From a virus: a stretch of DNA of 64,000 bases. Made by a program: the position numbers and the translations under genes. Where the stretch lies: positions 1-64,000 of the IMG/VR virus record IMGVR_UViG_3300049460_000196. One strand, written 5' to 3'. The notes under the pieces are model-generated. The model did not search any database. It was not told the origin of the DNA and worked only from the letters and a program-made list of their open reading frames with translations. Below, one piece after another: positions 6,804-61,658 of the stretch; position 1 is the stretch's first letter; each line of letters begins with the position of its first letter.

Positions 6804-7097
6804 TTACACTTTAGTGGGAATGGGGAACAGGTGACAGCCATATACCGCCACCTTATCCTTATCGTAGCTGGTAGTCGACGGGCTTCCGCCGTAAACATAC
6901 TGGACGACGCCGGTCACGATCAAGGATACTTTGCCCGATTTCGTGATGGTTTCGGCTATGCCAGTCACCACGCGAGTAATGCCGCTGGTGGTATTAGAAT
7001 ACCCGTACGACTGACCCATGACGATATCGTTGCCCAGAGCGTCGTTTTTACTTACTTCGATTGCCATATTAACTCTCCATGATGACCAAATAGCCAT
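6804..7097 (-). CDS. hypothetical protein (DxLGN-type small phage protein)
   Basis: DALGNDIVMGQ resembles DMLGNDYKVGD of 54243..54476. Confidence 0.55.
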   Translation of the reverse strand: MAIWSSWRVNMAIEVSKNDALGNDIVMGQSYGYSNTTSGITRVVTGIAETITKSGKVSLIVTGVVQYVYGGSPSTTSYDKDKVAVYGCHLFPIPTKV

Positions 7098-7551
7098 CCT
7101 TGTATGGGGTGAATGCCACGATGATGCTGCGGTATTGACTGCCGCCCTGTTTCCACAGTTGTTCGGCTGCTTTCCACATCATCAACCAGGATGGATCTTC
7201 CAGCAACACCGCATCTTCTGCTTCGTAGTAGACCTTCACCTGGCCTTGCGTGAAGGTTTGACGGAAGCCATCCAGTGGGATTTCGAAGATGCCCCATTCA
7301 GTTTTCAGTTCCTGGCGGGCACGAACTTCCTTGTAATACTGGGACCGTTCGTTTTCACGCTTCTCGTCGGCGGCGTAGGTCGCGGCCATGGCTTCTTCCA
7401 TTTTGGAGAGGCTGGCCTTGAAGCGAGCATTAAGCTTGGCATTCAGAACGCCATCCAACTCTTGCTGGAGGAAATACAGCTCGCTCCTGGCATTGTGCAG
7501 GTTGCGGAATTCTTCGCGGGTCAGAACAACTTGGTCGCCAGTATCAGCCAT
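7069..7551 (-). CDS. hypothetical protein
   Basis: GGAG RBS, upstream promoter. Confidence 0.65.
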   Translation of the reverse strand: MADTGDQVVLTREEFRNLHNARSELYFLQQELDGVLNAKLNARFKASLSKMEEAMAATYAADEKRENERSQYYKEVRARQELKTEWGIFEIPLDGFRQTFTQGQVKVYYEAEDAVLLEDPSWLMMWKAAEQLWKQGGSQYRSIIVAFTPYKDGYLVIMES

Positions 7552-43820: not shown

Positions 43821-44762
43821 TTATTCCTCTTTATTAATTTGGGCAAGCGCATGGCGCTCGCGTAGAACTTCCGTGATCTCTTCTGGAAGCTCCAATAAAC
43901 TATCGTATTCTGGATACTTACTGTGATGCGGTAATCTGAAAAACTTTTCAAATGCCCAGCCATCACCAGTCATATTGGCAAAATGTTCTTTCACCAATTC
44001 AAACCCTGTATACTTCTGTTGCTGTGGAATAACACTCAAACCCAATCTGTGCATACCGGTCACCTTCGCGATGTAGCGAAGTGCGATATCGGTTGGCATA
44101 TCGGGCTGAAACAGCATGAAAGGTAAGGCGATGTCAAGTGTATATCCAAGGAAATTTCCTACCAAAGGATATTTATTGATTTCAGCAAACGTCATCCAGA
44201 CACTATGACTGCGATTGGAAATGAACTCCCATTTGCCATCTCTTATACATGGTGGATTGCCGCCGCAAATAATAGCTGATGGAGCAAACCGTTCAATCAG
44301 CATTTCGTAGAAACGGCAATGGGCAGATAGCTGTGGCGATGGACAGTTGTATTTGACCACATAGGATGGAAGGTCGCGGCCCAGAAAACTCAATATGTTG
44401 AAGTCAACCAGCGTGTACTTGAATCTATGTGTTGTGCAAAAGGTGATGGCGGAAGAAACGTCATGGATATTCAGGTCATCACGAAATTGCATAATCACAA
44501 TGGTGAATTTCACATTAGCTCGTCGCAGCAAAAGGCATGCCGCCTGACTGTCAATCCCACCACTCAAGGCAACATATATGTTTGGCCCCAAAGATGCGGA
44601 AACGCTTGCTATTGACGCCTGCTGACGAGCCAGGAGTTCGGAAGGGATATAAGCACCAGTAAGTATATCAAATTGAGCGCCAGCTGACATCCGCCAAACC
44701 AGTTTGTTGACTGGTTCGACCGTGGGGGACAACCATTTTTCATGAAAAATACCTGGGGTCAT
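43821..44762 (-). CDS. PP-loop (asparagine-synthase-like) adenine nucleotide alpha-hydrolase
   Basis: VALSGGIDS, KYTGFE. Confidence 0.7.
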   Translation of the reverse strand: MTPGIFHEKWLSPTVEPVNKLVWRMSAGAQFDILTGAYIPSELLARQQASIASVSASLGPNIYVALSGGIDSQAACLLLRRANVKFTIVIMQFRDDLNIHDVSSAITFCTTHRFKYTLVDFNILSFLGRDLPSYVVKYNCPSPQLSAHCRFYEMLIERFAPSAIICGGNPPCIRDGKWEFISNRSHSVWMTFAEINKYPLVGNFLGYTLDIALPFMLFQPDMPTDIALRYIAKVTGMHRLGLSVIPQQQKYTGFELVKEHFANMTGDGWAFEKFFRLPHHSKYPEYDSLLELPEEITEVLRERHALAQINKEE

Positions 44763-46268: not shown

Positions 46269-46348
46269 TGGTGCGCTTGTGTGGACTTGAACCACAGTGC
46301 GGGTGCAGCAAAAAACCGCCCCTGTTCTACCAGTTGAACTACAATCGC
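46269..46348 (-). tRNA. atypical tRNA with lengthened anticodon arm and U-run loop (Lys-like or undetermined)
   Basis: D-arm GTTC-AACTGGTA-GAAC, GGGGCGG-TTTTTT-GCTGCACCC, T-arm, ACCA. Confidence 0.65.
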
Positions 46349-46387: not shown

Positions 46388-47575
46388 GTACCACTGAGAT
46401 TACATGGTCCTCGTTGACGCTTCGAACATTATTAGCCAGGATTGCGTCCCAACCTTCTTTCGATATCCACTAGAGCCCCTTTCGGGTAATCTAGTACGCC
46501 AACATCATCGCCGTTTTAAGTCAGGCAGTAGACTTGACACAGGGTGCTATTCTACGACTTTCCATCCGTTGACATTCGACTGCCATTAGAGCTTGCGGGC
46601 CCTACGAACTTCTTTTCATAAACCAACTAGGCCTTGCGAGCTTCGCTGAACTTGATTAACTTTCGTCTCAAGTATTAGATGATTTTCACACCCTGCCGAG
46701 GTAGACTTTGCATTTTGTATAAGTAAACGGTTTGATCGTTCGCTCTTTCTCCAATGAAAGTGCCATTTCTGGCGTGCAACTCACTGCGACGTGCTACCTC
46801 AGCTGCTCCAAAGTCTTTTGGACTCCAGAATACAACACGCCACGTATCTTTCGCCTCGCGGGCTACCGGATCGTCTTTCTCGACTAATGTCCACACCCTT
46901 GCGGATAGTCCACCAACCGATAAAACTGCATCATACCTCTTGGGTGCGACCCCTCGAAACATAACACTACCTTTCCCCGTACAAGATGGCAAGTTGGATT
47001 TGTGATGAGACTCGGCTCCCGCCATGTTCTCCCTCAACTGATGTTCCCTAACGAGCAAGCCCGCTAGGCATCTAAGCCAAGGTTCTTTCCATCACTCTTG
47101 CGTCCCAATTATCTCCAGGATAACCTGAAGTGCTTCCTTTCGGAAGCCGGGTCGGCTTGCATAACAGAACCACTTGCATGGCGCGGCTGCGTGAGCTTGA
47201 CCGCTTTCCCCGGGTTGCCCCGGCTCTTCCTTCCAATATACGGCAAGCCGTATACCGTGGAGCTATGCCCCCAAAACTTGTTTTACTCATAAATTCTACA
47301 AATACCCATTAAAGGAACGGCTGATACTAATGGAGCGACCATTATAAGGTTGCGAACCTCGCAGTGAACAAGTCACCGGCATATCAACTATGCGTTAGTA
47401 TCGTCAGGCAGCCGCACTGGCTGTTACTCCCTATTGTCCACCCGCACACGGAACAATCAACTACCGCGGTCAGGTCGCGTGCCATCAGGCAGTAGGTAAT
47501 TGACGGCTAGGATTTACACCTAGTACGTTCCATTAATGAATACTCAGAAAACACATGAGTAAAACAAATTGCTTA
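46388..47575 (-). ncRNA. large structured ncRNA, GOLLD-like
   Basis: ~1.2 kb with no credible ORF, many GNRA-capped hairpins, long-range helices 47278-90/47556-68, 3' GTAATCTCAG, next to a tRNA, own promoter. Confidence 0.65.
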
Positions 47576-48299: not shown

Positions 48300-48692
48300 T
48301 TATTCAAATTCCTGGTAGCATACAACCCGCTGCACAACACCATCGATAAACACAACAGCATCATCGCCATGTTTTGCTTTCCACAGTTGGGCGAAAGCAT
48401 CAAGGCTCAGATTGGTGGCATTGCGGGCATTATGAATATGAGTTGCATGCGACAAACTCAAAGTGCGTTCATGTATCCAGTCACGGGTGATGGGCAATTC
48501 CACTAACCCATTGACTTGCTGTTTCAGCTCAAGAAAATGAACTTGATACGCATCACCAAGAACATATTGTTTGATGCATGCCACCAGTTGCGGATTGTGC
48601 CGAAACGCTTTCCCTGCCTGCTTATGTCGGGTCAACTCACTAATCAATACGGGCACTACTTCATTAGGTATACGTTTTTGCTCAGTATTCAT
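48300..48692 (-). CDS. hypothetical protein
   Basis: start trimmed to MNTEQ, directly after the RNase P RNA. Confidence 0.55.
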   Translation of the reverse strand: MNTEQKRIPNEVVPVLISELTRHKQAGKAFRHNPQLVACIKQYVLGDAYQVHFLELKQQVNGLVELPITRDWIHERTLSLSHATHIHNARNATNLSLDAFAQLWKAKHGDDAVVFIDGVVQRVVCYQEFE

Positions 48693-48693
48693 G

Positions 48694-49054
48694 GTTTCCA
48701 ACGCCTCATAGCCGGGGTTCTGGTTCTCTTCCATCATTCATCTATGAGCATTACTGCTCATCCTCGCCGCCTTTCAAAACGGGTCATAGGTGCTACAACC
48801 CAGGCACTCGTCAGGTGGAGTCAACATGCCCTGTTTGTATTGCTGCGGAATCGTTGTGGTACAAGCGAAGCTTTTCCGTTCCCTATCTGATATCGAGTCG
48901 TTCAACACGGAGAACGGGGCACCGCAGAAGACACTTAGGCACATATATCAGTCAGTTTATCATTACTAGCTTCTCCCAACAGAGCGATAGCCCTACCTTG
49001 TGCAGCCCCGAACTTCCTCAAGCTTTCGCCTGCGATGGATCGAGCGTTGGAAAC
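48694..49054 (-). ncRNA. rnpB: RNase P RNA
   Basis: P1 GTTTCCAACGC/GCGTTGGAAAC; GAGGAAGTTCGGGGCT (P4 5'), TAGATGAATGAT, CAGAACCCCGGCTAT (P4 3'); ~360 nt. Confidence 0.88.
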
Positions 49055-49159
49055 TGTCGCCAGTATAAATGCTTTCCAGATTCGTATCAAGGATTATTTG
49101 ACGCCATGTGAAAACTTGATTACAAGGCTTTCGATAAATACTGTTTTAATGAGGTATTC

Positions 49160-50115: not shown

Positions 50116-50724
50116 TTATCCTTCAGATATTAAGCGCTTGATGGTCGCTGTGACCAATTGTGGATCGGCCTTCATTTGACGCATAACTTGCCCCATGAGC
50201 GAGCCGATTGCTTTGTCCTTACCAGACTTAAATTCCTGGACTGCCTTGGCATTCTGCGCCAAGACTGTTTTTACAATCGCATCCAGTTCACTCGTATCTG
50301 CCTCATCCAGTGCCGTAGAGGTCACCAAAACGTCTTCCAGCAAAAGTCCGATGTTGGACGTCAGCAGCACATCTTTCAGCAGCAAACGCGCCTGGTCTTT
50401 GCGAATCAGGTTTTTGTCGAGGAGCTGGGCAATTGCGAACAACGAACGCCCAGCACCATAGTGGTATTCTGGAATGTCGGTCAAGACCAAACCTGATTGA
50501 CTCAGTTGGCCTGACACGTCGTTGATCATGAACTTGTGGAAAACATCCAGATCAGAACTGAGGGTGAAACTTGCCGCATCTTTGCCGTGGAGATTAGCCA
50601 TGACAGCACGGTACATGAGTTCCTGATCTTTCATCACATTGATGTTTTGGTACAGTTTCAGCACCTCGGTATCATCAATGTGGGCAATACTGGCCACAAC
50701 AGCGGCAATTTCTAATTGTTTCAT
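50116..50724 (-). CDS. GatB C-terminal/YqeY tRNA-binding domain protein
   Basis: IVKTVLAQN..AV.EFKSGK.KAIG.LMGQVMR..KADP; start trimmed to MKQL. Confidence 0.85.
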   Translation of the reverse strand: MKQLEIAAVVASIAHIDDTEVLKLYQNINVMKDQELMYRAVMANLHGKDAASFTLSSDLDVFHKFMINDVSGQLSQSGLVLTDIPEYHYGAGRSLFAIAQLLDKNLIRKDQARLLLKDVLLTSNIGLLLEDVLVTSTALDEADTSELDAIVKTVLAQNAKAVQEFKSGKDKAIGSLMGQVMRQMKADPQLVTATIKRLISEG

Positions 50725-50737
50725 ATACGTTAAATTC

Positions 50738-50968
50738 TGGTGGACGCGACGGGACTTGAACCCGCGTATTTCCTTGTACCCGGGCATTACTCCGGGATCT
50801 AACACAACTTGGAAAATCCGCTTCCCTTGCTGTTTATCGCCACCTGTTGCCAGGCCGCTATAGGTGCGGGGTAAAACCATGCGTTATGCCAGACTTGCGA
50901 CTTGGAACCCATTTTATTGGAACCCCTGCCTATTTTTAGGAGTGCATCGCCCTCTTTGCTACGCGCCC
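50738..50968 (-). ncRNA. 231-nt tRNA-like RNA with ~160-nt structured insertion in the anticodon arm
   Basis: GGGCGCG/CGCGTCC-A-CCA (G3:U70), D-arm, T-arm GCGGG-TTCAAGT-CCCGT; insert contains ACAGCAA; own promoter TTGACT-17-TACCAT. Confidence 0.75.
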
Positions 50969-53129: not shown

Positions 53130-53207
53130 TGGTGGTGATAGGCGGGATCGAACCGCCGACCTGCGGGTTATGAATCCGCCGCTCTAACCAGTCTGAGCTA
53201 TATCACC
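53130..53207 (-). tRNA. tRNA-CAU (Met or Ile2)
   Basis: canonical cloverleaf, TT-CAT-AA, CCA. Confidence 0.92.
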
Positions 53208-53209
53208 TT

Positions 53210-53294
53210 TGGTGTCCTGGGCGGGACTCGAACCCGCACGCCTTTCGGCACCACCCCCTCAAAGTGGCGAGTCTACCAATTTCTCCACCAGGAC
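53210..53294 (-). tRNA. tRNA-Leu(GAG)
   Basis: CCACT-TT-GAG-GG-GGTGG, long variable arm, CCA. Confidence 0.92.
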
Positions 53295-53339
53295 ATTTTG
53301 TATTGCATGTATTATAGAACCTATTTACTAGTCTTGCAA

Positions 53340-53735
53340 CTACAGCCGTTTGAAAATTCCTTCCAGGGCCTGATATTCAGTACCCTTCAGATCTTTTGTT
53401 GCCTTATTGGCTGCACGAATTGCTGAACGGCTACTCTTAACCTGATTGATCAACTCTGCCAATACCTTCGGATCCAAGCATTCAAATTCATGAAGAGCCA
53501 TGATACGGCTGCACCCATATTTACCCGTGAAAGAAGTGGTAACATGCAGATGCACGGCATCCAGATTTGCATTATAGCCAGCGAGGAAAATCCGGAAGAC
53601 GACATCGTGATTCTTTTTCGTTCTCGCAAGCAGGTATGGGCTCCATTGTGTTGGCTCAGTGACGGCGAGGTTCAACATATTGGCTTTCGCGACAAAGCGA
53701 TTCGCAACATCTTGTTGCACAGGATTGAGAATCAT
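53340..53735 (-). CDS. hypothetical protein (tandem paralog A)
   Basis: similar along its length to 53744..54199. Confidence 0.7.
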   Translation of the reverse strand: MILNPVQQDVANRFVAKANMLNLAVTEPTQWSPYLLARTKKNHDVVFRIFLAGYNANLDAVHLHVTTSFTGKYGCSRIMALHEFECLDPKVLAELINQVKSSRSAIRAANKATKDLKGTEYQALEGIFKRL

Positions 53736-53743
53736 GTTGTACC

Positions 53744-54199
53744 TTAAATCAGCTTATTGATCAAGTCGTTGATCTTCACACCTTCAGCGCCGATGGCAAC
53801 CTGTAGGGCTTTCTTGGCTGCACGGTGAGCCGTACGACTGTCAGTGATTTGTTGGTGGAGCGCAGCCAAAGCCTTGGGATCAATGCGCTCAAATTCTTCA
53901 ATCGTGATGTACTTGATCGACTCATGGATGCCCGAAATACTTGATTGGACATGCTGGGTGATCTTTGGGCCGTTCGCACTCAATGGATCAGCACTCACAT
54001 TGAATTGGAACAGGATAGAACGGTTCTTGGCATGCCGGGCTTCGTGCGTCCAAGTATTCCACCAATTCATGGTTGATGTTGGATTACGAAAATCCAGAAC
54101 GAAGCCAATGTGTTCAGCTTTAAGGATAAAGCGATCGGCTAGTGCCTGCATGGCGGGATGAATGTTCATGTGAATACAAAAAGATTGACAATACCACAT
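53744..54199 (-). CDS. hypothetical protein (tandem paralog B)
   Basis: ADRFILKA..EFERIDPKALA..SR.A.RAA.KA. Confidence 0.7.
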   Translation of the reverse strand: MWYCQSFCIHMNIHPAMQALADRFILKAEHIGFVLDFRNPTSTMNWWNTWTHEARHAKNRSILFQFNVSADPLSANGPKITQHVQSSISGIHESIKYITIEEFERIDPKALAALHQQITDSRTAHRAAKKALQVAIGAEGVKINDLINKLI

Positions 54200-54242
54200 G
54201 GTACTGCCAATCTGGCAACTACTCTACTGGGGAGTTTTCACA

Positions 54243-54476
54243 TTATTGGAAAACTTTGGTGACGATCAGCATACGACCTGGATACTTGACCGAGCGAGTG
54301 GCGCCATCCAGATAGACTTTGCCATTTTTGATCTCAGTTACTTCCTTGATCTCGATGTCATACGACGTTGCGATTTTACCCAACACAACGCCACGGACGA
54401 CTTTGTCGCCAACCTTGTAGTCGTTACCCAGCATGTCTTTGGCTTCGGTACCGAGGAAATCGCTCTGGATGGTCAT
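54243..54476 (-). CDS. hypothetical protein
   Basis: GGAG RBS and promoter. Confidence 0.6.
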   Translation of the reverse strand: MTIQSDFLGTEAKDMLGNDYKVGDKVVRGVVLGKIATSYDIEIKEVTEIKNGKVYLDGATRSVKYPGRMLIVTKVFQ

Positions 54477-54539
54477 CTGCTACTCCGTGTTCGTTTATCT
54501 TGTTCCTATTATAGGCGTAGATGAACAAACAATCAAGTA

Positions 54540-54752
54540 TTAGTCACGTTTGTTTGCCAGTTCGTTCAACTGTTTGCTGAGGTCGGCGTCGGTTTCGGCG
54601 GTGATCACGCCCAGCTTAACCATGTTGTTCATGGTACCACGATACACTTCAAACTCGCGGTTATCGAACGACTCAACCATCACGTGCTCGCGACCAGTGT
54701 CGCTGTCGAAGGTGTCGTAGTTGTGTTTGATCTGCGCGTTGATGATATACAT
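54540..54752 (-). CDS. hypothetical protein
   Basis: AGGAG RBS and promoter. Confidence 0.6.
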   Translation of the reverse strand: MYIINAQIKHNYDTFDSDTGREHVMVESFDNREFEVYRGTMNNMVKLGVITAETDADLSKQLNELANKRD

Positions 54753-54817
54753 GGTCGCTCCTGCATTTGTGTAGAATCACATTATAGACGCAGATGAACA
54801 GAAAATCAAGTAATATT

Positions 54818-54901
54818 TGGTGGACCAGAGCGGAATTGAACCGCCACGACGTCGCGAACGTCTTTCCCAGTGCGGAGGACTTGTACTCACCTGAGTAGCC
54901 C
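54818..54901 (-). ncRNA. degenerate tRNA-like RNA
   Basis: GGCGG-TTCAATT-CCGCT, ACCA end, variable-arm hairpin; D and anticodon arms irregular. Confidence 0.5.
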
Positions 54902-54926
54902 AGCGAAGCACCAATACATGATGCTT

Positions 54927-55003
54927 TGGTGGACTATGGGGACTCGAACCCCCTCTCCCTGGCCCGTAATGATCAGCCTCGTGGGGCTTGTCCCACAATC
55001 TCC
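54927..55003 (-). ncRNA. degenerate tRNA-like RNA (UAC-like loop)
   Basis: GGGG-TTCGAGT-CCCC, TAGTCC-ACCA; non-standard D region. Confidence 0.5.
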
Positions 55004-55095
55004 GCCATTAGATGTAGCGGTGCTGAATCACGCTTCTGAAGCTACTCGCTTGAAGCCGATCATTACGAGCGACTGTTGCCAGTCACCCAGCTGGT

Positions 55096-55380
55096 TTAAT
55101 GGTCTTTGCAGTGACTCAGGTCGCCACGTGATGGCTTTGCACCAGCACGATGTTGTTTCGACCAGTCGTAATCTGCACCCGCGGAGGTAGCACCAGCTTT
55201 ACCAACGCTGTTTGGGTTCTCGGATACCATAGTCACGAAACGAATCTTACCCGTTTCTTCACCTTCGCGGCGCAGAGCAGCCTGAAACTCCAGTGGCTCT
55301 GCCAACAGTACGGTATCAAACACGCGGGATTTTGCTTCCAGGCCGTCTTCGTGAACTTCCGACCAATAAATCATAAACAT
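55096..55380 (-). CDS. hypothetical protein
   Basis: FVTMVSENPNSVGK.G..DY.W.K. Confidence 0.65.
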   Translation of the reverse strand: MFMIYWSEVHEDGLEAKSRVFDTVLLAEPLEFQAALRREGEETGKIRFVTMVSENPNSVGKAGATSAGADYDWSKQHRAGAKPSRGDLSHCKDH

Positions 55381-55496
55381 TTTACTTCCTCTCTCTTTTC
55401 ATCTTTATATTTACAAGAGAGTATATGGTAAAATGGCCACATTTTCAACTGTTATTTCAGATGGGTGGGGAAAGTTGACTTTCCCCAGTTTACGCA

Positions 55497-56144
55497 CTAT
55501 GCAGCCTCACGCTCCAATTCGGCCATAGCCGTCTGGTATTCGTCATCGCTGTAGTAATGATTGCCCAGAACGTCTATCCAAACATTGGTAGTAGCATACT
55601 GATTGTTGTCGCAGAATTGAGCATCGACTTTGAATTGTTCACCATCAACCGAATAGGTTTTCGGTACAGTCACGTTATTGCAATAACGATCGACATGAAG
55701 GAACATTTGAGACAAGCGGGCATGACTTGCGACACGCGCTTTGGTGATGTCGCGAGTGAACTCAGTTACCTTCGCATCAACGGCATAAATGGGCTCCACG
55801 CCTTTATGATAAAACTTGACCAAGTATGCAGTCTTGGCTGGCTCGTAACGGAGTCGAGCATCGCGTCCGAGAACTTTCGTTTGACGAAACATGGTGGACA
55901 CACATTCGATAACCTCTGGTTTGAATCCTTCAGGGCCCACCAGTTTAACGTTCATCAAAAGCTCGCCTTTGTATTGGAGCCCGACCATATTATGACCGTG
56001 GGTATCAAGCAGCTTGCGAACGGCTTTGGCATGATGCTTGGTGCCCGTATATAGCGTCAATAGCGTATTGGGTTTGAACCCACGCTCCATCAATGCTGTA
56101 ACGGCCCGAACTGGATCTGAATCTACAATACGATGCGAAATCAT
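55497..56144 (-). CDS. hypothetical protein
   Basis: ORF. Confidence 0.65.
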   Translation of the reverse strand: MISHRIVDSDPVRAVTALMERGFKPNTLLTLYTGTKHHAKAVRKLLDTHGHNMVGLQYKGELLMNVKLVGPEGFKPEVIECVSTMFRQTKVLGRDARLRYEPAKTAYLVKFYHKGVEPIYAVDAKVTEFTRDITKARVASHARLSQMFLHVDRYCNNVTVPKTYSVDGEQFKVDAQFCDNNQYATTNVWIDVLGNHYYSDDEYQTAMAELEREAA

Positions 56145-56205
56145 GTGCTTCCCCGGTGCGTTAAAAAAAACACACTATACTGTAATTAATACAATGTTCA
56201 AAGCT

Positions 56206-56508
56206 CTACACTACTAAAACATCAATGAAGGCAGTTGGGGTATTGGTGGGTTCAGGAGGAAAGACGGCGGCCCATTGTGCGGCATAGCGCTCAATAGATT
56301 CGCCTAGAATGAATTTATAGCCAACCACACAACCATCACCAGTAAACGCATTCAGCGTCGTGATCAGGAGTTCATTGGTTGGTGTTTCTTCGTAGTCATC
56401 ACTCAATGAATATGAGTCGATGTTGTGTGATTCGAGCCATGACTTTGCTTCCGGGTAATCACCGAACCAGAGTCCGTAAATGGCAATGCCCGTGTATGCA
56501 ACTGTCAT
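56206..56508 (-). CDS. hypothetical protein
   Basis: ORF. Confidence 0.55.
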   Translation of the reverse strand: MTVAYTGIAIYGLWFGDYPEAKSWLESHNIDSYSLSDDYEETPTNELLITTLNAFTGDGCVVGYKFILGESIERYAAQWAAVFPPEPTNTPTAFIDVLVV

Positions 56509-56519
56509 AGTCTTTTATG

Positions 56520-56552
56520 TGGTAGGGAGAGGGGGACTTGAACCCCCACGCC
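56520..56552 (-). pseudogene. orphan 3' half of a tRNA-Leu
   Basis: GGCGT-GGGGG-TTCAAGT-CCCCC-TCTCCCT-A-CCA. Confidence 0.75.
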
Positions 56553-56557
56553 ACTAT

Positions 56558-56642
56558 TGGTACCCTGAGCCGGAATCGAACCGGCACGCCTCACGGCGCT
56601 TGATTTTGAGTCAAGTGCGTCTACCAGTTCCGCCATCAGGGC
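56558..56642 (-). tRNA. tRNA-Leu(CAA)
   Basis: CTTGA-CT-CAA-AA-TCAAG, CCA. Confidence 0.93.
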
Positions 56643-57091
56643 TCATTCTGTTTATATTGACTGCGTTTCTTACCAGTAAGAGCTTGAGCAATTTTCGCTC
56701 TATGTTCGGGAGATTTTGGCTTCCCTGCATTACCCTTACCAGCTTTACGTGCTTGCTCTACACCTCTACTCTGTGAGGCACATGCAGCTTCGTATCCATT
56801 CTTAGCGACATTCTGTTCCCAAAGCGTCATACCCGTATGGTCTACACGATCAATATAATTGTCTTTGTGCGTACCCCAATACAAATGATTGGGGTTACTG
56901 CATTTTTCATTATTGCAAGCATGACACAACAAAGTTGTGTGAGTTTCGGGTATGGTAGTTCCCAAAGTTGCTGCCAACAATCCGCGAAATTCAACTGATT
57001 TGCCACCACGTTCAACACATGGAAGTTCAAGAGCTAAATGACTACGGCGTTCTTCTCTACTCAGAAGCATATGGTCGATGATATTCATCAT
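56636..57091 (-). CDS. HNH homing endonuclease with NUMOD3-like tail
   Basis: LCHACNNEKCSNPNHLYWGT.KDN; GKPKSPEHRAKIAQALTGK. Confidence 0.88.
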   Translation of the reverse strand: MMNIIDHMLLSREERRSHLALELPCVERGGKSVEFRGLLAATLGTTIPETHTTLLCHACNNEKCSNPNHLYWGTHKDNYIDRVDHTGMTLWEQNVAKNGYEAACASQSRGVEQARKAGKGNAGKPKSPEHRAKIAQALTGKKRSQYKQNEP

Positions 57092-57107
57092 CTATTTAGT
57101 AAACACG

Positions 57108-57139
57108 GCTGCTGTGTCTACCAATTCCACCATCCCCCA
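57108..57139 (-). pseudogene. orphan 5' half of a tRNA-Leu
   Basis: TGGGGGA-TG-GTGGAATTGGTAGACAC-AGCAGC; acceptor strand pairs with the 56520 half. Confidence 0.75.
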
Positions 57140-57152
57140 TAAGCGTATATTT

Positions 57153-57237
57153 TGGTGCCCAGAGCCGGAATCGAACCGGCACGCCTTGCGGCAGCGGATT
57201 TTGAGTCCGCCAAGTCTACCAGTTTCATCATCTGGGC
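57153..57237 (-). tRNA. tRNA-Leu(CAA)
   Basis: GCGGA-CT-CAA-AA-TCCGC, CCA. Confidence 0.92.
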
Positions 57238-57310
57238 GACAAAATATAAGTTCACGTGCTGCTAGTGCTCCGCATTATACATATCGGAGCCCAGTATGCC
57301 AAATGTTTTT

Positions 57311-57389
57311 TGGTGGATGCGGTGGGCATCGAACCCACAAAGCCCAAGATTTTAAGTCCCGGAGGTATGCCATTTCCCGTCACGCATCC
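57311..57389 (-). tRNA. tRNA-Leu(UAA), short variable region
   Basis: GGATGCG/CGCATCC-A-CCA, CGGGA-CT-TAA-AA-TCTTG. Confidence 0.85.
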
Positions 57390-57415
57390 ATGGGATGACG
57401 CACGTCATCCATGTA

Positions 57416-57814
57416 TTACAGATACAGCCTGGTGTTCCAGTCGTTGTACTGGTCACCATCATAGGTGGTATTCCACCTAAACGAACGTTTAACCAGCTTC
57501 TTGTCCCACGTATATTCCACGCGATCAAAACTGTATTCAAACGAACTTACTACCGACTCGCCATCAACCAATACTGCTTGGCCATAGCGAACCTTATTGA
57601 GCATCTGATCAGGCTCAAAGAAAATTGTTCTCACTTCGTTATGCCAATCCGCAGGCACATAAAGGTCAATCAACTTCTGGACATTCTCAAATGTTGCATC
57701 CCATTGTTCAGGTATGCGAATGGTCTCCATGGCCATGTGTGTGCCATTCCAAGCCGCATACCGTATCTCAACGGACGGTTTGATTCTATATTGGGGAAGG
57801 GTTATGGGAAACAT
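57416..57814 (-). CDS. hypothetical protein (tandem paralog)
   Basis: ITLPQY..KPSV similar to 57822..58235. Confidence 0.7.
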   Translation of the reverse strand: MFPITLPQYRIKPSVEIRYAAWNGTHMAMETIRIPEQWDATFENVQKLIDLYVPADWHNEVRTIFFEPDQMLNKVRYGQAVLVDGESVVSSFEYSFDRVEYTWDKKLVKRSFRWNTTYDGDQYNDWNTRLYL

Positions 57815-57821
57815 CGTCTAT

Positions 57822-58235
57822 TTACCGAACATAGAAATACTTGGCATGATCTTCACCATTTGCACCAGTTCGACGTGAGCGTTTGGTGATCTTACCTGCA
57901 ACTCCCTTATTCATCGCAACATCAACTTGTTCATACGAGTATGACTCAACGTGCATAACCAGATCACCATCGTCGCTCAAATAGGCTTGATCATATTGAA
58001 GCTTGGGAATCAACTGGTCAGAAATGAAGGCCACATACGATACGGTATCATGAAATTGTGGAGGAACATGCTTGTGCATGAATGCTACTGCATTGTCGCG
58101 TGTTGGCGCAAGCTCAACGTCCTCGGACACCAGGATAGCCATGTTGCCACGAGTGTGCGACAAGCCATCGTCATACACCAGAAAAACGCTTGGCTTGTAG
58201 GCATACTTGGGTAAAGTGATCGACAAATCCATCAA
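57822..58235 (-). CDS. hypothetical protein (tandem paralog)
   Basis: ITLPKY..KPSV..DQ...K..Y.QA. Confidence 0.7.
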   Translation of the reverse strand: MMDLSITLPKYAYKPSVFLVYDDGLSHTRGNMAILVSEDVELAPTRDNAVAFMHKHVPPQFHDTVSYVAFISDQLIPKLQYDQAYLSDDGDLVMHVESYSYEQVDVAMNKGVAGKITKRSRRTGANGEDHAKYFYVR

Positions 58236-58609
58236 ACACCCTTTGCGATGTCAGGATGTTTTGCCAGCAAAGTAGCCAACAGTTCTTTCTCTGCCGCCTC
58301 GTCTTTGGCTTTCTTCTTCAGTGCCTTTTCCTTACGGGTGAGATCAGCTTTTGCTTTACGTTGACGTTCTGCTTCTTCTTCCTTAGCAATAATATCCACG
58401 TAGTCGCGAACAGTTTTCTTGATGAAAGCTGCTTCGTCTGCTGGACGTTCAATGATCGAAAAGTTCATACGATGCGATGCACCATACAGCTTGTTATAGG
58501 TATCTTCGTCAACTTCAGTCCACTCAGTGATTGAATTTACGATCTGATCGCAATCATCACCATAATTATAGTAGAAGTCGCGAGTGGTTATAATGGCAAT
58601 TTTTCTCAT
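58232..58609 (-). CDS. hypothetical coiled-coil protein
   Basis: ORF. Confidence 0.65.
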   Translation of the reverse strand: MRKIAIITTRDFYYNYGDDCDQIVNSITEWTEVDEDTYNKLYGASHRMNFSIIERPADEAAFIKKTVRDYVDIIAKEEEAERQRKAKADLTRKEKALKKKAKDEAAEKELLATLLAKHPDIAKGV

Positions 58610-58625
58610 TTGCTCTTGTTATTGT

Positions 58626-58696
58626 TGGACCCACCTGCTGGGCTCGAACCAGCCTCACAGAGGTCGGAGCTCTGTGGCGTCTCCCTACGAGGTGAG
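58626..58696 (-). tRNA. atypical tRNA-Arg(CCG) with truncated D-arm
   Basis: ACAGAG-CT-CCG-AC-CTCTGT, GCTGG-TTCGAGC-CCAGC, CCA. Confidence 0.7.
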
Positions 58697-58703
58697 TTAT
58701 GTT

Positions 58704-58787
58704 TGGTCTCGGTGACAGGAGTCGAACCTGCAAAAGCCTGGGGTCTAGACCCAGTAGGTGTACCTGATTTCCATGAGCCACACCGAG
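58704..58787 (-). tRNA. atypical tRNA-Leu(UAG): enlarged D region, short variable arm, C33
   Basis: CTCGGTG/CACCGAG-A-CCA, CTGGG-TC-TAG-AC-CCCAG. Confidence 0.75.
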
Positions 58788-58796
58788 GTAATTCTA

Positions 58797-59045
58797 TTAT
58801 TCAACTATTTGATTTGCAGCCATCGTGGCATCGATTTTTCGTTGTTGATCCTGATCATATAATCGAACAAAAATTAGTTCAATACGTTGACTCCATTGCT
58901 GATCACGAATTTCCTTTTCAGTCTTCTCCGCTGAAGCAATGGCGAGATCAACAGCACGATCATCTGGAAAAATATGGACCACAGATGACGAAGCAAAATC
59001 ACCACCATTGACATGCTTGGTTATAATCAATACCGGACAAGTCAT
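58797..59045 (-). CDS. hypothetical protein
   Basis: coupled ORF. Confidence 0.5.
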   Translation of the reverse strand: MTCPVLIITKHVNGGDFASSSVVHIFPDDRAVDLAIASAEKTEKEIRDQQWSQRIELIFVRLYDQDQQRKIDATMAANQIVE

Positions 59046-59220
59046 TTTCGTTTTTGTTGTTGATAAGCCAGGGTCATCACGTGTGTGATTTCGTCATCGT
59101 CGGTGTGATATACCTCACTACCATCTGCATACTTGACTTTACAATATTTCTTGCGGGAATCAAGTAAGTGGAGATCACCATACTCAACTGAAAGCATGAT
59201 GCGATTGCTCGTGATTTCAA

Positions 59221-59427
59221 TCATACCGGATAGCGGATGACTTCACCTGCCGCCAAGGCTTTAACTTGCTCAGCCAACTGTTCTTGAATCAGCAACAGCT
59301 CTGCTTTTGTGGTGATGTGTTTTTTGCTGTCGTCAGCAAAGATCACCATACAATCAACATTTTCTGGATGATCGTAATTGTAGTCTACCGACTTGATGTA
59401 CAGCGGATATTTGTCCATGTAAGCCAT
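59221..59427 (-). CDS. hypothetical protein
   Basis: GAGGAG RBS. Confidence 0.55.
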   Translation of the reverse strand: MAYMDKYPLYIKSVDYNYDHPENVDCMVIFADDSKKHITTKAELLLIQEQLAEQVKALAAGEVIRYPV

Positions 59428-59489
59428 TCAAATGCTCCTCGAAAGCATTATGGTAACAAGACAAATACTTGATGTCTAATTATGAATTC

Positions 59490-59565
59490 TGGTGCTGATG
59501 AAGGGGATCGAACCCTTGACCTCTTCCTTACCGAGAAAGTGCTCTTCCAACTGAGCTACATCAGC
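59490..59565 (-). tRNA. tRNA-Thr(GGU)
   Basis: GCTGATG/CATCAGC-A-CCA, CTTTC-TC-GGT-AA-GGAAG. Confidence 0.9.
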
Positions 59566-59596
59566 GTTGAAGGGACGGGAAGAACTCCCGTCCCTT

Positions 59597-60166
59597 TTAG
59601 TTACCTGGCAACAGGCGACTTTTCTTCTGCACACCAGCCAGCAAAAATTCCATCTGGTCAGCCAGGATGTTGCGGTTACGCATGATCAATCCTTCGTTAC
59701 GGTCAGGTACGTATGGTACGTACAAGAGTGGCATTTTTGCTTCTTCAGGAGTACGGTCAGCTTTACGACTGTTGCATGGCTCGCAAGCCGCAACAATGTT
59801 CTGCCATGTGAATGGACCACCACGCGAGTCTGGCATGATGTGTTCCATGCGCAGGTCATCTTTATGGAACTGACCACCGCAGTAAGCACAGGTGTGACGG
59901 TCACGAAGAACCAGAGCATCCTTGCTCAAAGCAATCGACAAGCGGTGACGCTGATCGCTCTTGCCCTTTACTGCGATAATGGTTGGCACTCGCATGGTGG
60001 ACTGGTCACCATCACGATTGTGACCTCCGCGCAGAGTGATCTGCTCATCGCCCATTTCCCAAAGAATCTTACCCAGCGATTGCAGGTAAGCGTAGTGTTC
60101 AATATCTGACCACTGGGTTGGCGTACCATACGCATCCAGTGTCAATATCCGTATCCGATCCAACAT
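59597..60166 (-). CDS. HNH endonuclease (McrA/HNH_5-like)
   Basis: RDRHTCAYCG, EHIMP.SRGG..WQN.V.AC..CN.RK.DRTPEEA.M.L. Confidence 0.92.
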   Translation of the reverse strand: MLDRIRILTLDAYGTPTQWSDIEHYAYLQSLGKILWEMGDEQITLRGGHNRDGDQSTMRVPTIIAVKGKSDQRHRLSIALSKDALVLRDRHTCAYCGGQFHKDDLRMEHIMPDSRGGPFTWQNIVAACEPCNSRKADRTPEEAKMPLLYVPYVPDRNEGLIMRNRNILADQMEFLLAGVQKKSRLLPGN

Positions 60167-60204
60167 ATCGTACCTCCTTTCAGTTATCAGTTATTTAATC
60201 AAAC

Positions 60205-60232
60205 AAAAGGCCCAGGAATTCCTGGGCCTTTT
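60205..60232. terminator. intrinsic terminator
   Basis: AAAAGGCCCAGGAATTCCTGGGCCTTTT. Confidence 0.8.
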
Positions 60233-60248
60233 CAATTGTGTGTATCGC

Positions 60249-60653
60249 TTAGAGTGCAAGTAAGGGTGGTAAACCTATTCCTGCTCGCAACCTCTGACAA
60301 TCTGGATTCGGCGTACCATCATCCATCCAGACTGGAAATTCCCTACATACTGATGGACGGTTGGTGTAAATTGCACAACCGATACCACCGACACCAATCT
60401 CACCCTGGAGTGCAGAGCAGCGACCATTACCACATTCAGTACCAGTCATGCACGCCATGAAATCATTGACCTTAGATGTCAATGCAACGGGCACCGTACC
60501 ACCAACATCAGTCGTTTCACCCTGGTAGAATGAAACCCGGTAATGGGAGCAGCAAATGCCGCAAGTCAAGCATGGATTGTCTGGGCCGTCAGGCATGTCA
60601 ATAAAGACCTTGCCGTCATCCTGAACCCTGGATATTTGTTTGATCGTTTCCAT
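60249..60653 (-). CDS. YkgJ-family cysteine-cluster (Zn/Fe-chelating) protein
   Basis: NPCLTCGICC, RC.AL.G, C.IY.NRPSVCREF. Confidence 0.88.
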   Translation of the reverse strand: METIKQISRVQDDGKVFIDMPDGPDNPCLTCGICCSHYRVSFYQGETTDVGGTVPVALTSKVNDFMACMTGTECGNGRCSALQGEIGVGGIGCAIYTNRPSVCREFPVWMDDGTPNPDCQRLRAGIGLPPLLAL

Positions 60654-60663
60654 GACGGCCTCG

Positions 60664-60966
60664 TCAGACCTTAATAGCAATGTTGACGTTATCCATTTCC
60701 ATAAGACCCTGGTGATACACATCTTCGCTATCGATGTACAGGCGAATTTCTTGGTTGTTCATGTTTGTGTCAACTTCCATCCACCAAGCTTCTTGGTCGC
60801 GTGGTGGATAACCAAATACACGAACAATCTCATGACTGATTTGCAGAATGTTGTGGGTATAAAAGTTGAAGCGGAAACCGAATTTGGATTTCTTGGGCTT
60901 GAATTCGTGCATGGCAACCTCGTGATTAGAAGTTGCCAGTTTAACTGGCAGAATGCTATTTTGCAA
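60664..60966 (-). CDS. hypothetical protein
   Basis: ORF. Confidence 0.5.
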   Translation of the reverse strand: MQNSILPVKLATSNHEVAMHEFKPKKSKFGFRFNFYTHNILQISHEIVRVFGYPPRDQEAWWMEVDTNMNNQEIRLYIDSEDVYHQGLMEMDNVNIAIKV

Positions 60967-60986
60967 ACGGCATTCTTCAGGTATAC

Positions 60987-61547
60987 TTAGATATATGCCG
61001 AACGAATCTGATCGTACAATTCAGCTTTGGCCTTTTGCTTACCGATTGGTCCAAGCTTGTTGATGGTGCGCAGATATGCGTTGAATGGCTGCAATACCGA
61101 TTCATATTTGTCTTCCACGTCCGGGCCTGGATTCGTCAATGCTTCAATGAGGACGGACAATACGGCATCTGCACCAGTGCCAACATGGTTGATCAAGGCA
61201 GTCATTACCGTATTTGGAGTTACACCCGCCATATCACCAACATAATCGGAAACGTTATCTGGGTTTGCAACCAAGAAGTCATACATTGAATCGCAGTAGT
61301 CTTTCATGAACGCTGGCAGATCAATACCGAACGACTCAAAAGTTCTCGGCTCAAAATTCTTTCGATCACCACGACGTTCAGCTGCTGCTTGTTTGTTACG
61401 GGTTCTGATGTTTTCAATCTCGCGGAATGCCGCATCGCGTGCTTTCGCATTTACTTCAGGACTGAATTCATCACTGTATTGCCACAAGCTCGAGAGCTTT
61501 GGGACTGGTTCAGCTTCCATTAATTGTTTGATTTCGTTGAATCGCAT
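60987..61547 (-). CDS. hypothetical protein, probable late gene
   Basis: GGAG RBS, upstream TAAATA, MRFNEI start. Confidence 0.7.
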   Translation of the reverse strand: MRFNEIKQLMEAEPVPKLSSLWQYSDEFSPEVNAKARDAAFREIENIRTRNKQAAAERRGDRKNFEPRTFESFGIDLPAFMKDYCDSMYDFLVANPDNVSDYVGDMAGVTPNTVMTALINHVGTGADAVLSVLIEALTNPGPDVEDKYESVLQPFNAYLRTINKLGPIGKQKAKAELYDQIRSAYI

Positions 61548-61582
61548 AAGATACTCCCATTAAGAGAGTATTTATCTTGTGG

Positions 61583-61658
61583 TGGTGCCCATTACCAGAA
61601 TCGAACTGATGGCCTCCTGATTACGAAACAGGCACTCTTCCAACTGAGCTAAATGGGC
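61583..61658 (-). tRNA. tRNA-Thr(CGU)
   Basis: GCCCATT/AATGGGC-A-CCA, TT-CGT-AA loop. Confidence 0.9.

Follow-up and report, generated by a model that had tools for sequence, protein, structure and literature searches.

RNase P RNA is the ribozyme that trims new tRNAs, and in its canonical form a specificity domain (S-domain) reads the tRNA elbow. It is viewed as a ribozyme universal to cells, and searches of the full-text literature, with a 2026 paper on RNase P evolution among the texts, gave no account of one encoded by a virus. Among the closest described systems are RNase P RNAs that work with little or no S-domain. Among natural RNAs, the Type T RNase P RNA of Thermoproteaceae (Pyrobaculum) is described as having lost nearly all of the S-domain while keeping the catalytic domain, or C-domain (Lai et al. 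2010, PMC3012483, via PMC12974513), and it has been modelled as well (PMC3579882). Among engineered RNAs, the E. coli C-domain ribozyme (Eco CP RPR) cleaves without the S-domain, whether or not the C5 protein is present, and relies on an interaction of the P6 type; the E. coli RNase P RNA becomes less efficient when the S-domain is lost (PMC5839562).

The RNA described here is encoded in a stretch of 64,000 nucleotides (the window) that makes up the first 64 kb of a 113,103-base IMG/VR virus record (IMGVR_UViG_3300049460_000196). The completeness of the record was estimated by CheckV at 27%, which makes it a fragment of a very large phage, and several of its large ORFs match PHROG families. 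A previous sequence-only reading had placed a phage-encoded RNase P RNA with a divergent specificity domain at 48694-49054, giving no strand. Rfam cmscan at permissive thresholds matched RF00010 (RNaseP_bact_a) to positions 48692-49052 of the minus strand over the whole model (positions 1-367), in agreement with those coordinates within 2 nt. The covariance-model search proposed in that reading thus produced a match, of 48.7 bits (E 1.1e-13) and below the Rfam gathering score of 100; for this reason the default Rfam search of the window, which returned GOLLD and eight tRNAs, is silent on RNase P. The identification is borne out by this match on a phage contig, by 64 distinct homologues and by covarying helices. 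In the model alignment, P1, P2, P3, J3/4 with the P4 5' strand, P5, P15-P16, J18/2 and the P4 3' strand are all taken in, and all the S-domain positions are passed over as local insertions, so that the divergence noticed in the specificity domain is real: the domain is non-canonical next to an intact catalytic domain. P1, P2, P3, the P4 strands, J18/2 and L15 are also legible by eye. The minimum free energy z-score of the entire RNA (-0.25) is uninformative.

The features of the gene and of its catalytic domain are given below, where RNA position n corresponds to window coordinate 49053-n, and the percentages of paired cells and the compensatory changes refer to the family alignment.

48696 to 49052, minus strand: RNase P RNA gene of 357 nt, delimited by the two strands of P1 (RF00010 match and alignment A5); the Rfam match runs 4 nt past the P1 3' strand, down to 48692
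RNA 14-19 with 318-323: P2, 92% paired, compensatory changes at 6 of 6 pairs
RNA 21-25 with 30-34: P3, 96% paired, compensatory changes at 3 of 5 pairs
49006 to 49019, minus strand: J3/4 and P4 5' strand (CR-I), GAGGAAGUUCGGGG, with the bulged U41, invariant or nearly so in 22 sequences
48708 to 48722, minus strand: P4 3' strand (CR-V), CAGAACCCCGGCUAU, from the RF00010 alignment, pair counts and variant counts
RNA 39-40 and 42-47 with 336-343: P4, 97% paired, compensatory changes at 3 of 8 pairs
RNA 48-51 with 207-210: P5, 99% paired, compensatory changes at 3 of 4 pairs
48994 to 48998 (RNA 55-59) with 48813-48817 (RNA 236-240, mini-P17 loop), minus strand: P6 pseudoknot, 97% paired
48985 to 48988 (RNA 65-68) with 48850-48853 (RNA 200-203), minus strand: P7, 99% paired, compensatory changes at 3 of 4 pairs
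48794 to 48839 (within RNA 214-259), minus strand: P15, P16, mini-P17 and L15, 100% paired, with compensatory changes
48762 to 48790 (RNA 271-274 with 283-286), minus strand: extra hairpin between P15 and P18, called P18a, 100% paired, compensatory changes at 4 of 4 pairs
48736 to 48761, minus strand: P18 (base RNA 292-295 with 306-309) with a GUAA (GNRA) loop, followed by J18/2, AGAUGAAU

The fold was tested on an alignment of 22 sequences (A5), with partners slid by 1-3 columns and 500 shuffles as controls. The proposed structure has 77-84% of its cells paired, compared with ~35-48% for slid partners, and the observed covariation was reached by none of the 500 shuffles. Compensatory changes so far above the shuffled and slid controls, in a family of 64 homologues, indicate that the feature is not due to chance. 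Covariation was found at all 11 pairs of P1, even though the MAFFT alignment of this helix is poor, and at the base of P18 95% of the cells are paired, with compensatory changes at 4 of 4 pairs. The P6 pseudoknot, formed by J5/7 with L17, shows both-sided changes in 4 of 5 pairs, and true bacterial RNAs have this pairing too. In the window RNA, J5/7 departs from the family consensus and a matching change in the L17 loop restores the P6 pairing; as these deviations compensate each other, the constraint that acts on the family acts on the window copy as well.

The L15 sequence GGGUUG (48796-48801), the 3'-CCA-binding loop of class-A RNAs, is invariant in the 22 aligned sequences. J18/2 is invariant in the family alignment as well, and in the window RNA it is aligned to RF00010 at high posterior probability. 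The GNRA loop of P18 is kept although P8, its usual docking partner, is missing, and the P18a hairpin is not present in the bacterial RNAs compared in a further alignment (A6). A local hairpin after P5 (ACAGAG/CUCUGU) was considered and rejected, with one compensatory cell against six unpaired cells, because the same nucleotides are better explained by P6 and by a UGUGG/CCACA helix. As a whole, sequence and covariation support the assignment of the window RNA to a complete class-A catalytic domain, comprising P1-P7, the P6 pseudoknot, P15-P18 and the P4 core.

Within this core, the P4 helix shows a change of register. In about 57 of 61 scorable members GAGGAAGUUCGGGG pairs with CCCCGGCUAY, which gives two pairs, the bulged U and six pairs, whereas three pairs, the bulge and five pairs are found in all bacterial controls and in two phage members of the L042 type. 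The total length of P4 is unchanged and the bulge has moved by one pair with respect to bacteria. Of the 22 aligned sequences, 17 have G-C as the additional distal pair, one has A-U and four leave it unpaired. The two exceptional members (L042:2781-3123 and one other) combine the bacterial 3+5 register, GAGGAAAGUC... with ...CCGCUUAY, with an S-region of the phage type, and may represent a snapshot of the register shift.

What stands in place of the specificity domain is described by two further features.

48976 to 48981 (RNA 72-74 and 76-77, with an extra U75) with 48855-48859 (CCACA), minus strand: short helix beyond P7, 98% paired
48867 to 48973, minus strand: S-region, consisting of a closing helix S1 (RNA 80-85 with 181-186) around a 95-nt lineage-specific insert (RNA 86-180)

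Neither direct alignment nor an HMM of the bacterial S-domain could detect P8, P9, P10-P14 or the CR-II/CR-III T-loop modules in the phage RNAs; the HMM matched 0 of 64 of them at E<=1e-3, while an HMM of the 3' half of the bacterial C-domain recovered 62 of the 64. The site of bacterial P8/P9, between P7 and the UGUGG/CCACA helix, is occupied by a CUC/A internal loop alone. In alignment A5, four sequences have a G-C pair of this helix changed to C-G, L019 has another three swaps, and a conserved asymmetric junction separates the helix from S1. S1 is itself a covarying helix, with a mean of 4.4 consecutive pairs from the anchor as compared with 2.0 +/- 0.17 for shuffled partners (maximum 2.6 in 2000 permutations) and with 44 distinct strand sequences across the family. 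Between the end of the P7 loop and the CCACA strand there are 19 to 198 nt, the window RNA having 118 nt, 95 of them inside S1, and the smallest members (L019 and L088) having an S-region of 19-20 nt. No motif conserved family-wide was found in the S-region. The window RNA falls in a subgroup with L010, L091, L017, L102 and L053, which have the junction GCC-N-AAGUGUC in common, and for this subgroup RNAalifold predicts S1 followed by helices Sa, Sb (GUC/GAC, interrupted by a 4-nt bulge) and Sc; 11 of the 25 pairs show compensatory changes, the covariation term is small, and the predicted fold has moderate support. A tentative pseudoknot, in which the Sc loop pairs with the strand 3' of Sa (RNA 136-142 with 171-177), recurs in position in L010, L091 and the L017 group, with duplex energies no better than those of shuffles (z -0.65 for the window RNA; a p of 0.03 is reached in L091 alone).

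The 64 homologues were gathered from viral and metagenome contigs by three pattern scans of IMG/VR, each with a different conserved block, and one metagenome scan, followed by nhmmer block models on the loci. All seven relatives that were scored are full-length RF00010 matches of 26.6-66.7 bits, all sub-threshold, and the Rfam gathering score was not reached by any of eleven large family loci. Since the family RNAs tested lie below the Rfam threshold, such genes escape annotation pipelines. Relatives occur in complete phage genomes of 336-385 kb, two of which have terminal repeats. The sequence-only reading had called RNase P RNAs uncommon in phages, and this holds for the 50,697 GenBank phage records, in which three family members used as blastn queries gave no match; it does not hold for uncultured large phages, in which the family recurs.

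A few members have unusual architectures. On one contig only (L028, IMGVR_UViG_3300012988_000040, shared with L096), the reverse complement of about 6985-7249 contains a miniature gene for RNase P RNA that is circularly permuted, in the order 3' half, P1 with a capping loop, 5' half, with tRNA genes directly after. Its termini pair at 7 of 7 positions, rebuilding the S1 helix, and its distal P4 pairs are all swapped in a compensatory manner with respect to the family. L030:5001-5334 (minus strand) is a full-size member whose 3' part is interrupted or trailed by a second miniature RNase P-like unit with another GAGGAAGUUC...GGGUUG set, which could be a nested copy, a tandem copy or an assembly artefact. 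L011:1512-1872 (identical to L012) is divergent, and no other member shows even a faint similarity to the bacterial S-domain HMM (E 0.0024, 10 bits for L011). Part of the canonical S-domain may be retained in it, which would make it an intermediate form.

A degenerate pattern for P17/P6/L15, run over one genome per species for 185,579 prokaryote species, gave 12 matches. Of these, seven belong to Armatimonadota and Actinomycetota and are true class-A RNAs, six of them scored with Rfam at 220-293 bits, two are phage-type RNAs, and three were placed in neither class. Both phage-type RNAs lie on short MAG contigs, L053 with 62.7 bits among tRNA genes and L062 recognised by nhmmer alone. When the phage RNAs and those of Armatimonadota and Actinomycetota are aligned directly, J5/7 and an exact 17-nt P17/P6 strand are found in both, and the phage sequence is unrelated where the bacteria have P8, P9, the P10/P11 strand, J11/12, J12/13 and P13-P14.

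The genomic context of the gene is dominated by tRNA genes, of which ARAGORN predicted 55 in the record, all on the minus strand and mostly between 53 and 72.7 kb.

53130 to 61658, minus strand: part of the tRNA array inside the window, upstream of the RNase P RNA and on the same strand, continuing to 72.7 kb of the record
49062 to 49090, minus strand: putative sigma-70-like promoter, TTGATA-17 nt-TATACT, with 10 of 12 consensus matches, the best site in the region

The promoter-like site ends 10 nt before P1, with a predicted start about 3 nt upstream of P1, and no terminator was found after the RNase P RNA gene. At 63 family loci, every one of the 366 predicted tRNAs shares the strand of the RNase P RNA, and the nearest lies at a median of 173 nt. 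In the window phage the 3'-CCA is encoded by 49 of the 55 tRNA genes, matching the invariant L15; leader position -1 is U in 58% of the tRNAs compared with a background of 25%, and 17 of 54 spacers between tRNAs measure 15 nt or less. Five of the 55 tRNAs have a D-stem of 2-3 bp and a small D-loop, yet a normal T-arm, acceptor stem and CCA. Short-D-arm tRNAs lie at 58626-58696 in the window and at 64462-64545, 70901-70972 and 72306-72376 in the record (the numbering is the same up to 64000). Several 'Leu' tRNAs of 78-79 nt in the window phage are without a long variable arm.

GOLLD RNA (203 bits) is located at 46391-46843 on the minus strand, 1.85 kb downstream of the RNase P RNA and on the same strand, and in L042 and L046, too, GOLLD and the family RNA are no more than a few kb apart. 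Directly 3' of GOLLD, at 46272-46348 (minus strand), a permissive search gave a tRNA match of 39 bits (family cut-off 29), which was called neither by the default Rfam run nor by ARAGORN. A permuted tmRNA called by ARAGORN at 54538-55017 (minus strand) has no Rfam tmRNA support there; the call is probably false, or the RNA there of a different kind. The RNA island is flanked by a GatB/YqeY-domain protein (50116-50880, minus strand, E 1e-18) and by a weak match to a PP-loop, tRNA_Me_trans-like protein (43821-44762, minus strand, just below the cut-off), which suggests a cluster of tRNA-related functions. The neighbouring proteins are otherwise nearly all orphans, and the ORFs that overlap the RNase P RNA on both strands gave no Pfam or PHROG match. 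RnpA (PF00825) had no match in the 113 kb record, nor in three relatives of 336-385 kb with 98-100% completeness. A 130-aa ORF starting 4 nt after the RNase P RNA was rejected as a protein partner, as it has a pI of 7.1 and no homologue at the other family loci.

We consider it probable that the gene encodes a working phage RNase P ribozyme, derived from bacterial class A, that processes the phage tRNA arrays with the host RnpA. From homology, fold, conservation and gene context we infer the catalysis, the substrates and the protein partner. The RNA would be transcribed from its own putative promoter, on the same strand as the ~55 tRNA genes, and would fold into the full class-A catalytic domain. 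Precursor tRNAs would be held by the acceptor stem, by the encoded 3'-CCA through L15 and by the U at leader position -1, and the cleavage of their 5' leaders would separate the tightly packed tRNA arrays during infection. The reader of the tRNA elbow (P8-P14 with CR-II/CR-III) would have been replaced by a stack of P7, the short helix and S1 with its lineage-specific insert, and the host RnpA would be borrowed as protein partner, given that the phage encodes none. In addition, as a tRNA-like Y RNA is an RNase P substrate (PMC4201824), tRNA-like RNAs could by analogy be extra substrates of the phage RNA. Against this reading stand the sub-threshold Rfam score, the disappearance of CR-II/CR-III, which normally position the tRNA, together with the reduced efficiency of the E. 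coli RNA on S-domain loss (PMC5839562), and a P4 register that is unlike that of all bacterial controls and may bear on the metal-binding site.

One alternative, which seems unlikely, is that the RNA is active as RNase P but is directed by its new S-region to special substrates of the phage in place of ordinary tRNAs, such as short-D-arm tRNAs, tRNA-like mimics of the Y-RNA type or structured RNAs, for example GOLLD. In bacteria the S-region half selects the substrate, and in the phage RNAs it is the part that is replaced and variable; the precedent of the Y RNA (PMC4201824), the five tRNAs with reduced D-arms in the window phage and GOLLD, lying 1.85 kb downstream and also near the RNase P RNA in L042 and L046, point in the same direction. 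A related suggestion, that the RNase P RNA is present to serve D-arm-deficient tRNAs, had been made from the sequence alone and is not upheld as a general rule: such tRNAs amount to 5 of 55 in the window phage and are nearly absent beside relatives (3 of 366 at 43 loci), so that aberrant D-arms do not travel with the RNase P RNA family. Moreover, members with an S-region of 19-20 nt adjoin ordinary tRNA arrays, and the S-region has no family-wide motif, as a shared recognition surface would need.

An improbable alternative is that of a decoy or competitor, which would bind the host RnpA or precursor tRNAs without useful catalysis and divert tRNA maturation from the host. A phage with no RnpA found, whose RNA keeps the class-A protein-contact regions (P3, J18/2 and P4) and has lost the substrate-positioning S-domain, would fit such a role; yet compensatory change has maintained the P4 bulged U, J5/15, the CCA-binding L15 and the P6 pseudoknot, more than protein binding would call for, and the strict same-strand position in tRNA arrays suits a role in processing. 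Finally, it is very improbable that the gene is a decaying, non-functional leftover of an rnpB captured from the host, or that the contig is misclassified and the gene bacterial, and covariation largely refutes this reading. The sub-threshold Rfam score and the departure of the window J5/7 and P6 strands from the family consensus have to be set against 64 diverged copies with compensatory substitutions, P6 deviations in the window that offset each other, relatives in complete phage genomes of 336-385 kb (two with terminal repeats), and a search of 185,579 prokaryote species genomes in which the phage type was found on two short MAG contigs only, one of them (L053) with a tRNA array, the bacteria's own RNAs being canonical.

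If the reading as a working phage ribozyme is true, the RNA would be the first RNase P encoded by a virus, and with at least 64 copies in phages, tRNA 5' maturation would join the translation functions that huge phages bring along. It would also constitute a natural experiment on how much S-domain a bacterial RNase P needs, since the family offers natural, covariation-validated cases of a bacterial C-domain with a replaced or nearly absent S-domain and a shifted P4; in this way, the contribution of the S-domain and the tolerance of the active site become testable on small natural RNAs. More tentatively, and with somewhat more doubt than confidence, the phage RNAs could be seen as a distinct class, with a class-A C-domain, P4 slid by one base pair, an added hairpin and interchangeable, fast-evolving replacements of the elbow domain (from a 19-nt hairpin to ~200 nt), permuted at least once and active on phage tRNA arrays with the host RnpA alone or with no protein.

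Compared with class-A RNase P RNA (RF00010; E. coli M1 RNA, rnpB), the phage RNA has the same P1-P7, P6 pseudoknot, P15-P18, bulged-U P4 core, J18/2 and J5/15, together with the L15 GGU loop, which in the phage is matched to CCA-encoding tRNA genes. It differs in its score (48.7 bits against 220-293 for true bacterial RNAs), in being without P8, P9, CR-II/CR-III and P10-P14, in its 2+6 arrangement of P4 against the bacterial 3+5, in the hairpin added before P18 and in a carrier without an rnpA gene. As in Type T, the catalytic domain is retained and the specificity domain is gone. Type T, however, is archaeal and chromosomal and works with archaeal proteins, whereas the phage RNA has a class-A backbone and a viral gene, and while Type T has lost its S-domain, the window RNA has exchanged it for a structured insert of ~100 nt. 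An archaeal-type catalytic domain like that of Type T was not found, the best member of the clan being bacterial class A, and P15-P18 with L15 are bacterial features, so that the resemblance to Type T is in the kind of reduction and not in ancestry. With Eco CP RPR the phage RNAs have in common a class-A C-domain without the S-domain, and P6, on which that ribozyme depends, is strictly kept in them; the E. coli RNA, in contrast, is a laboratory construct of reduced efficiency, without the helices specific to the phage RNAs or the shift in P4.
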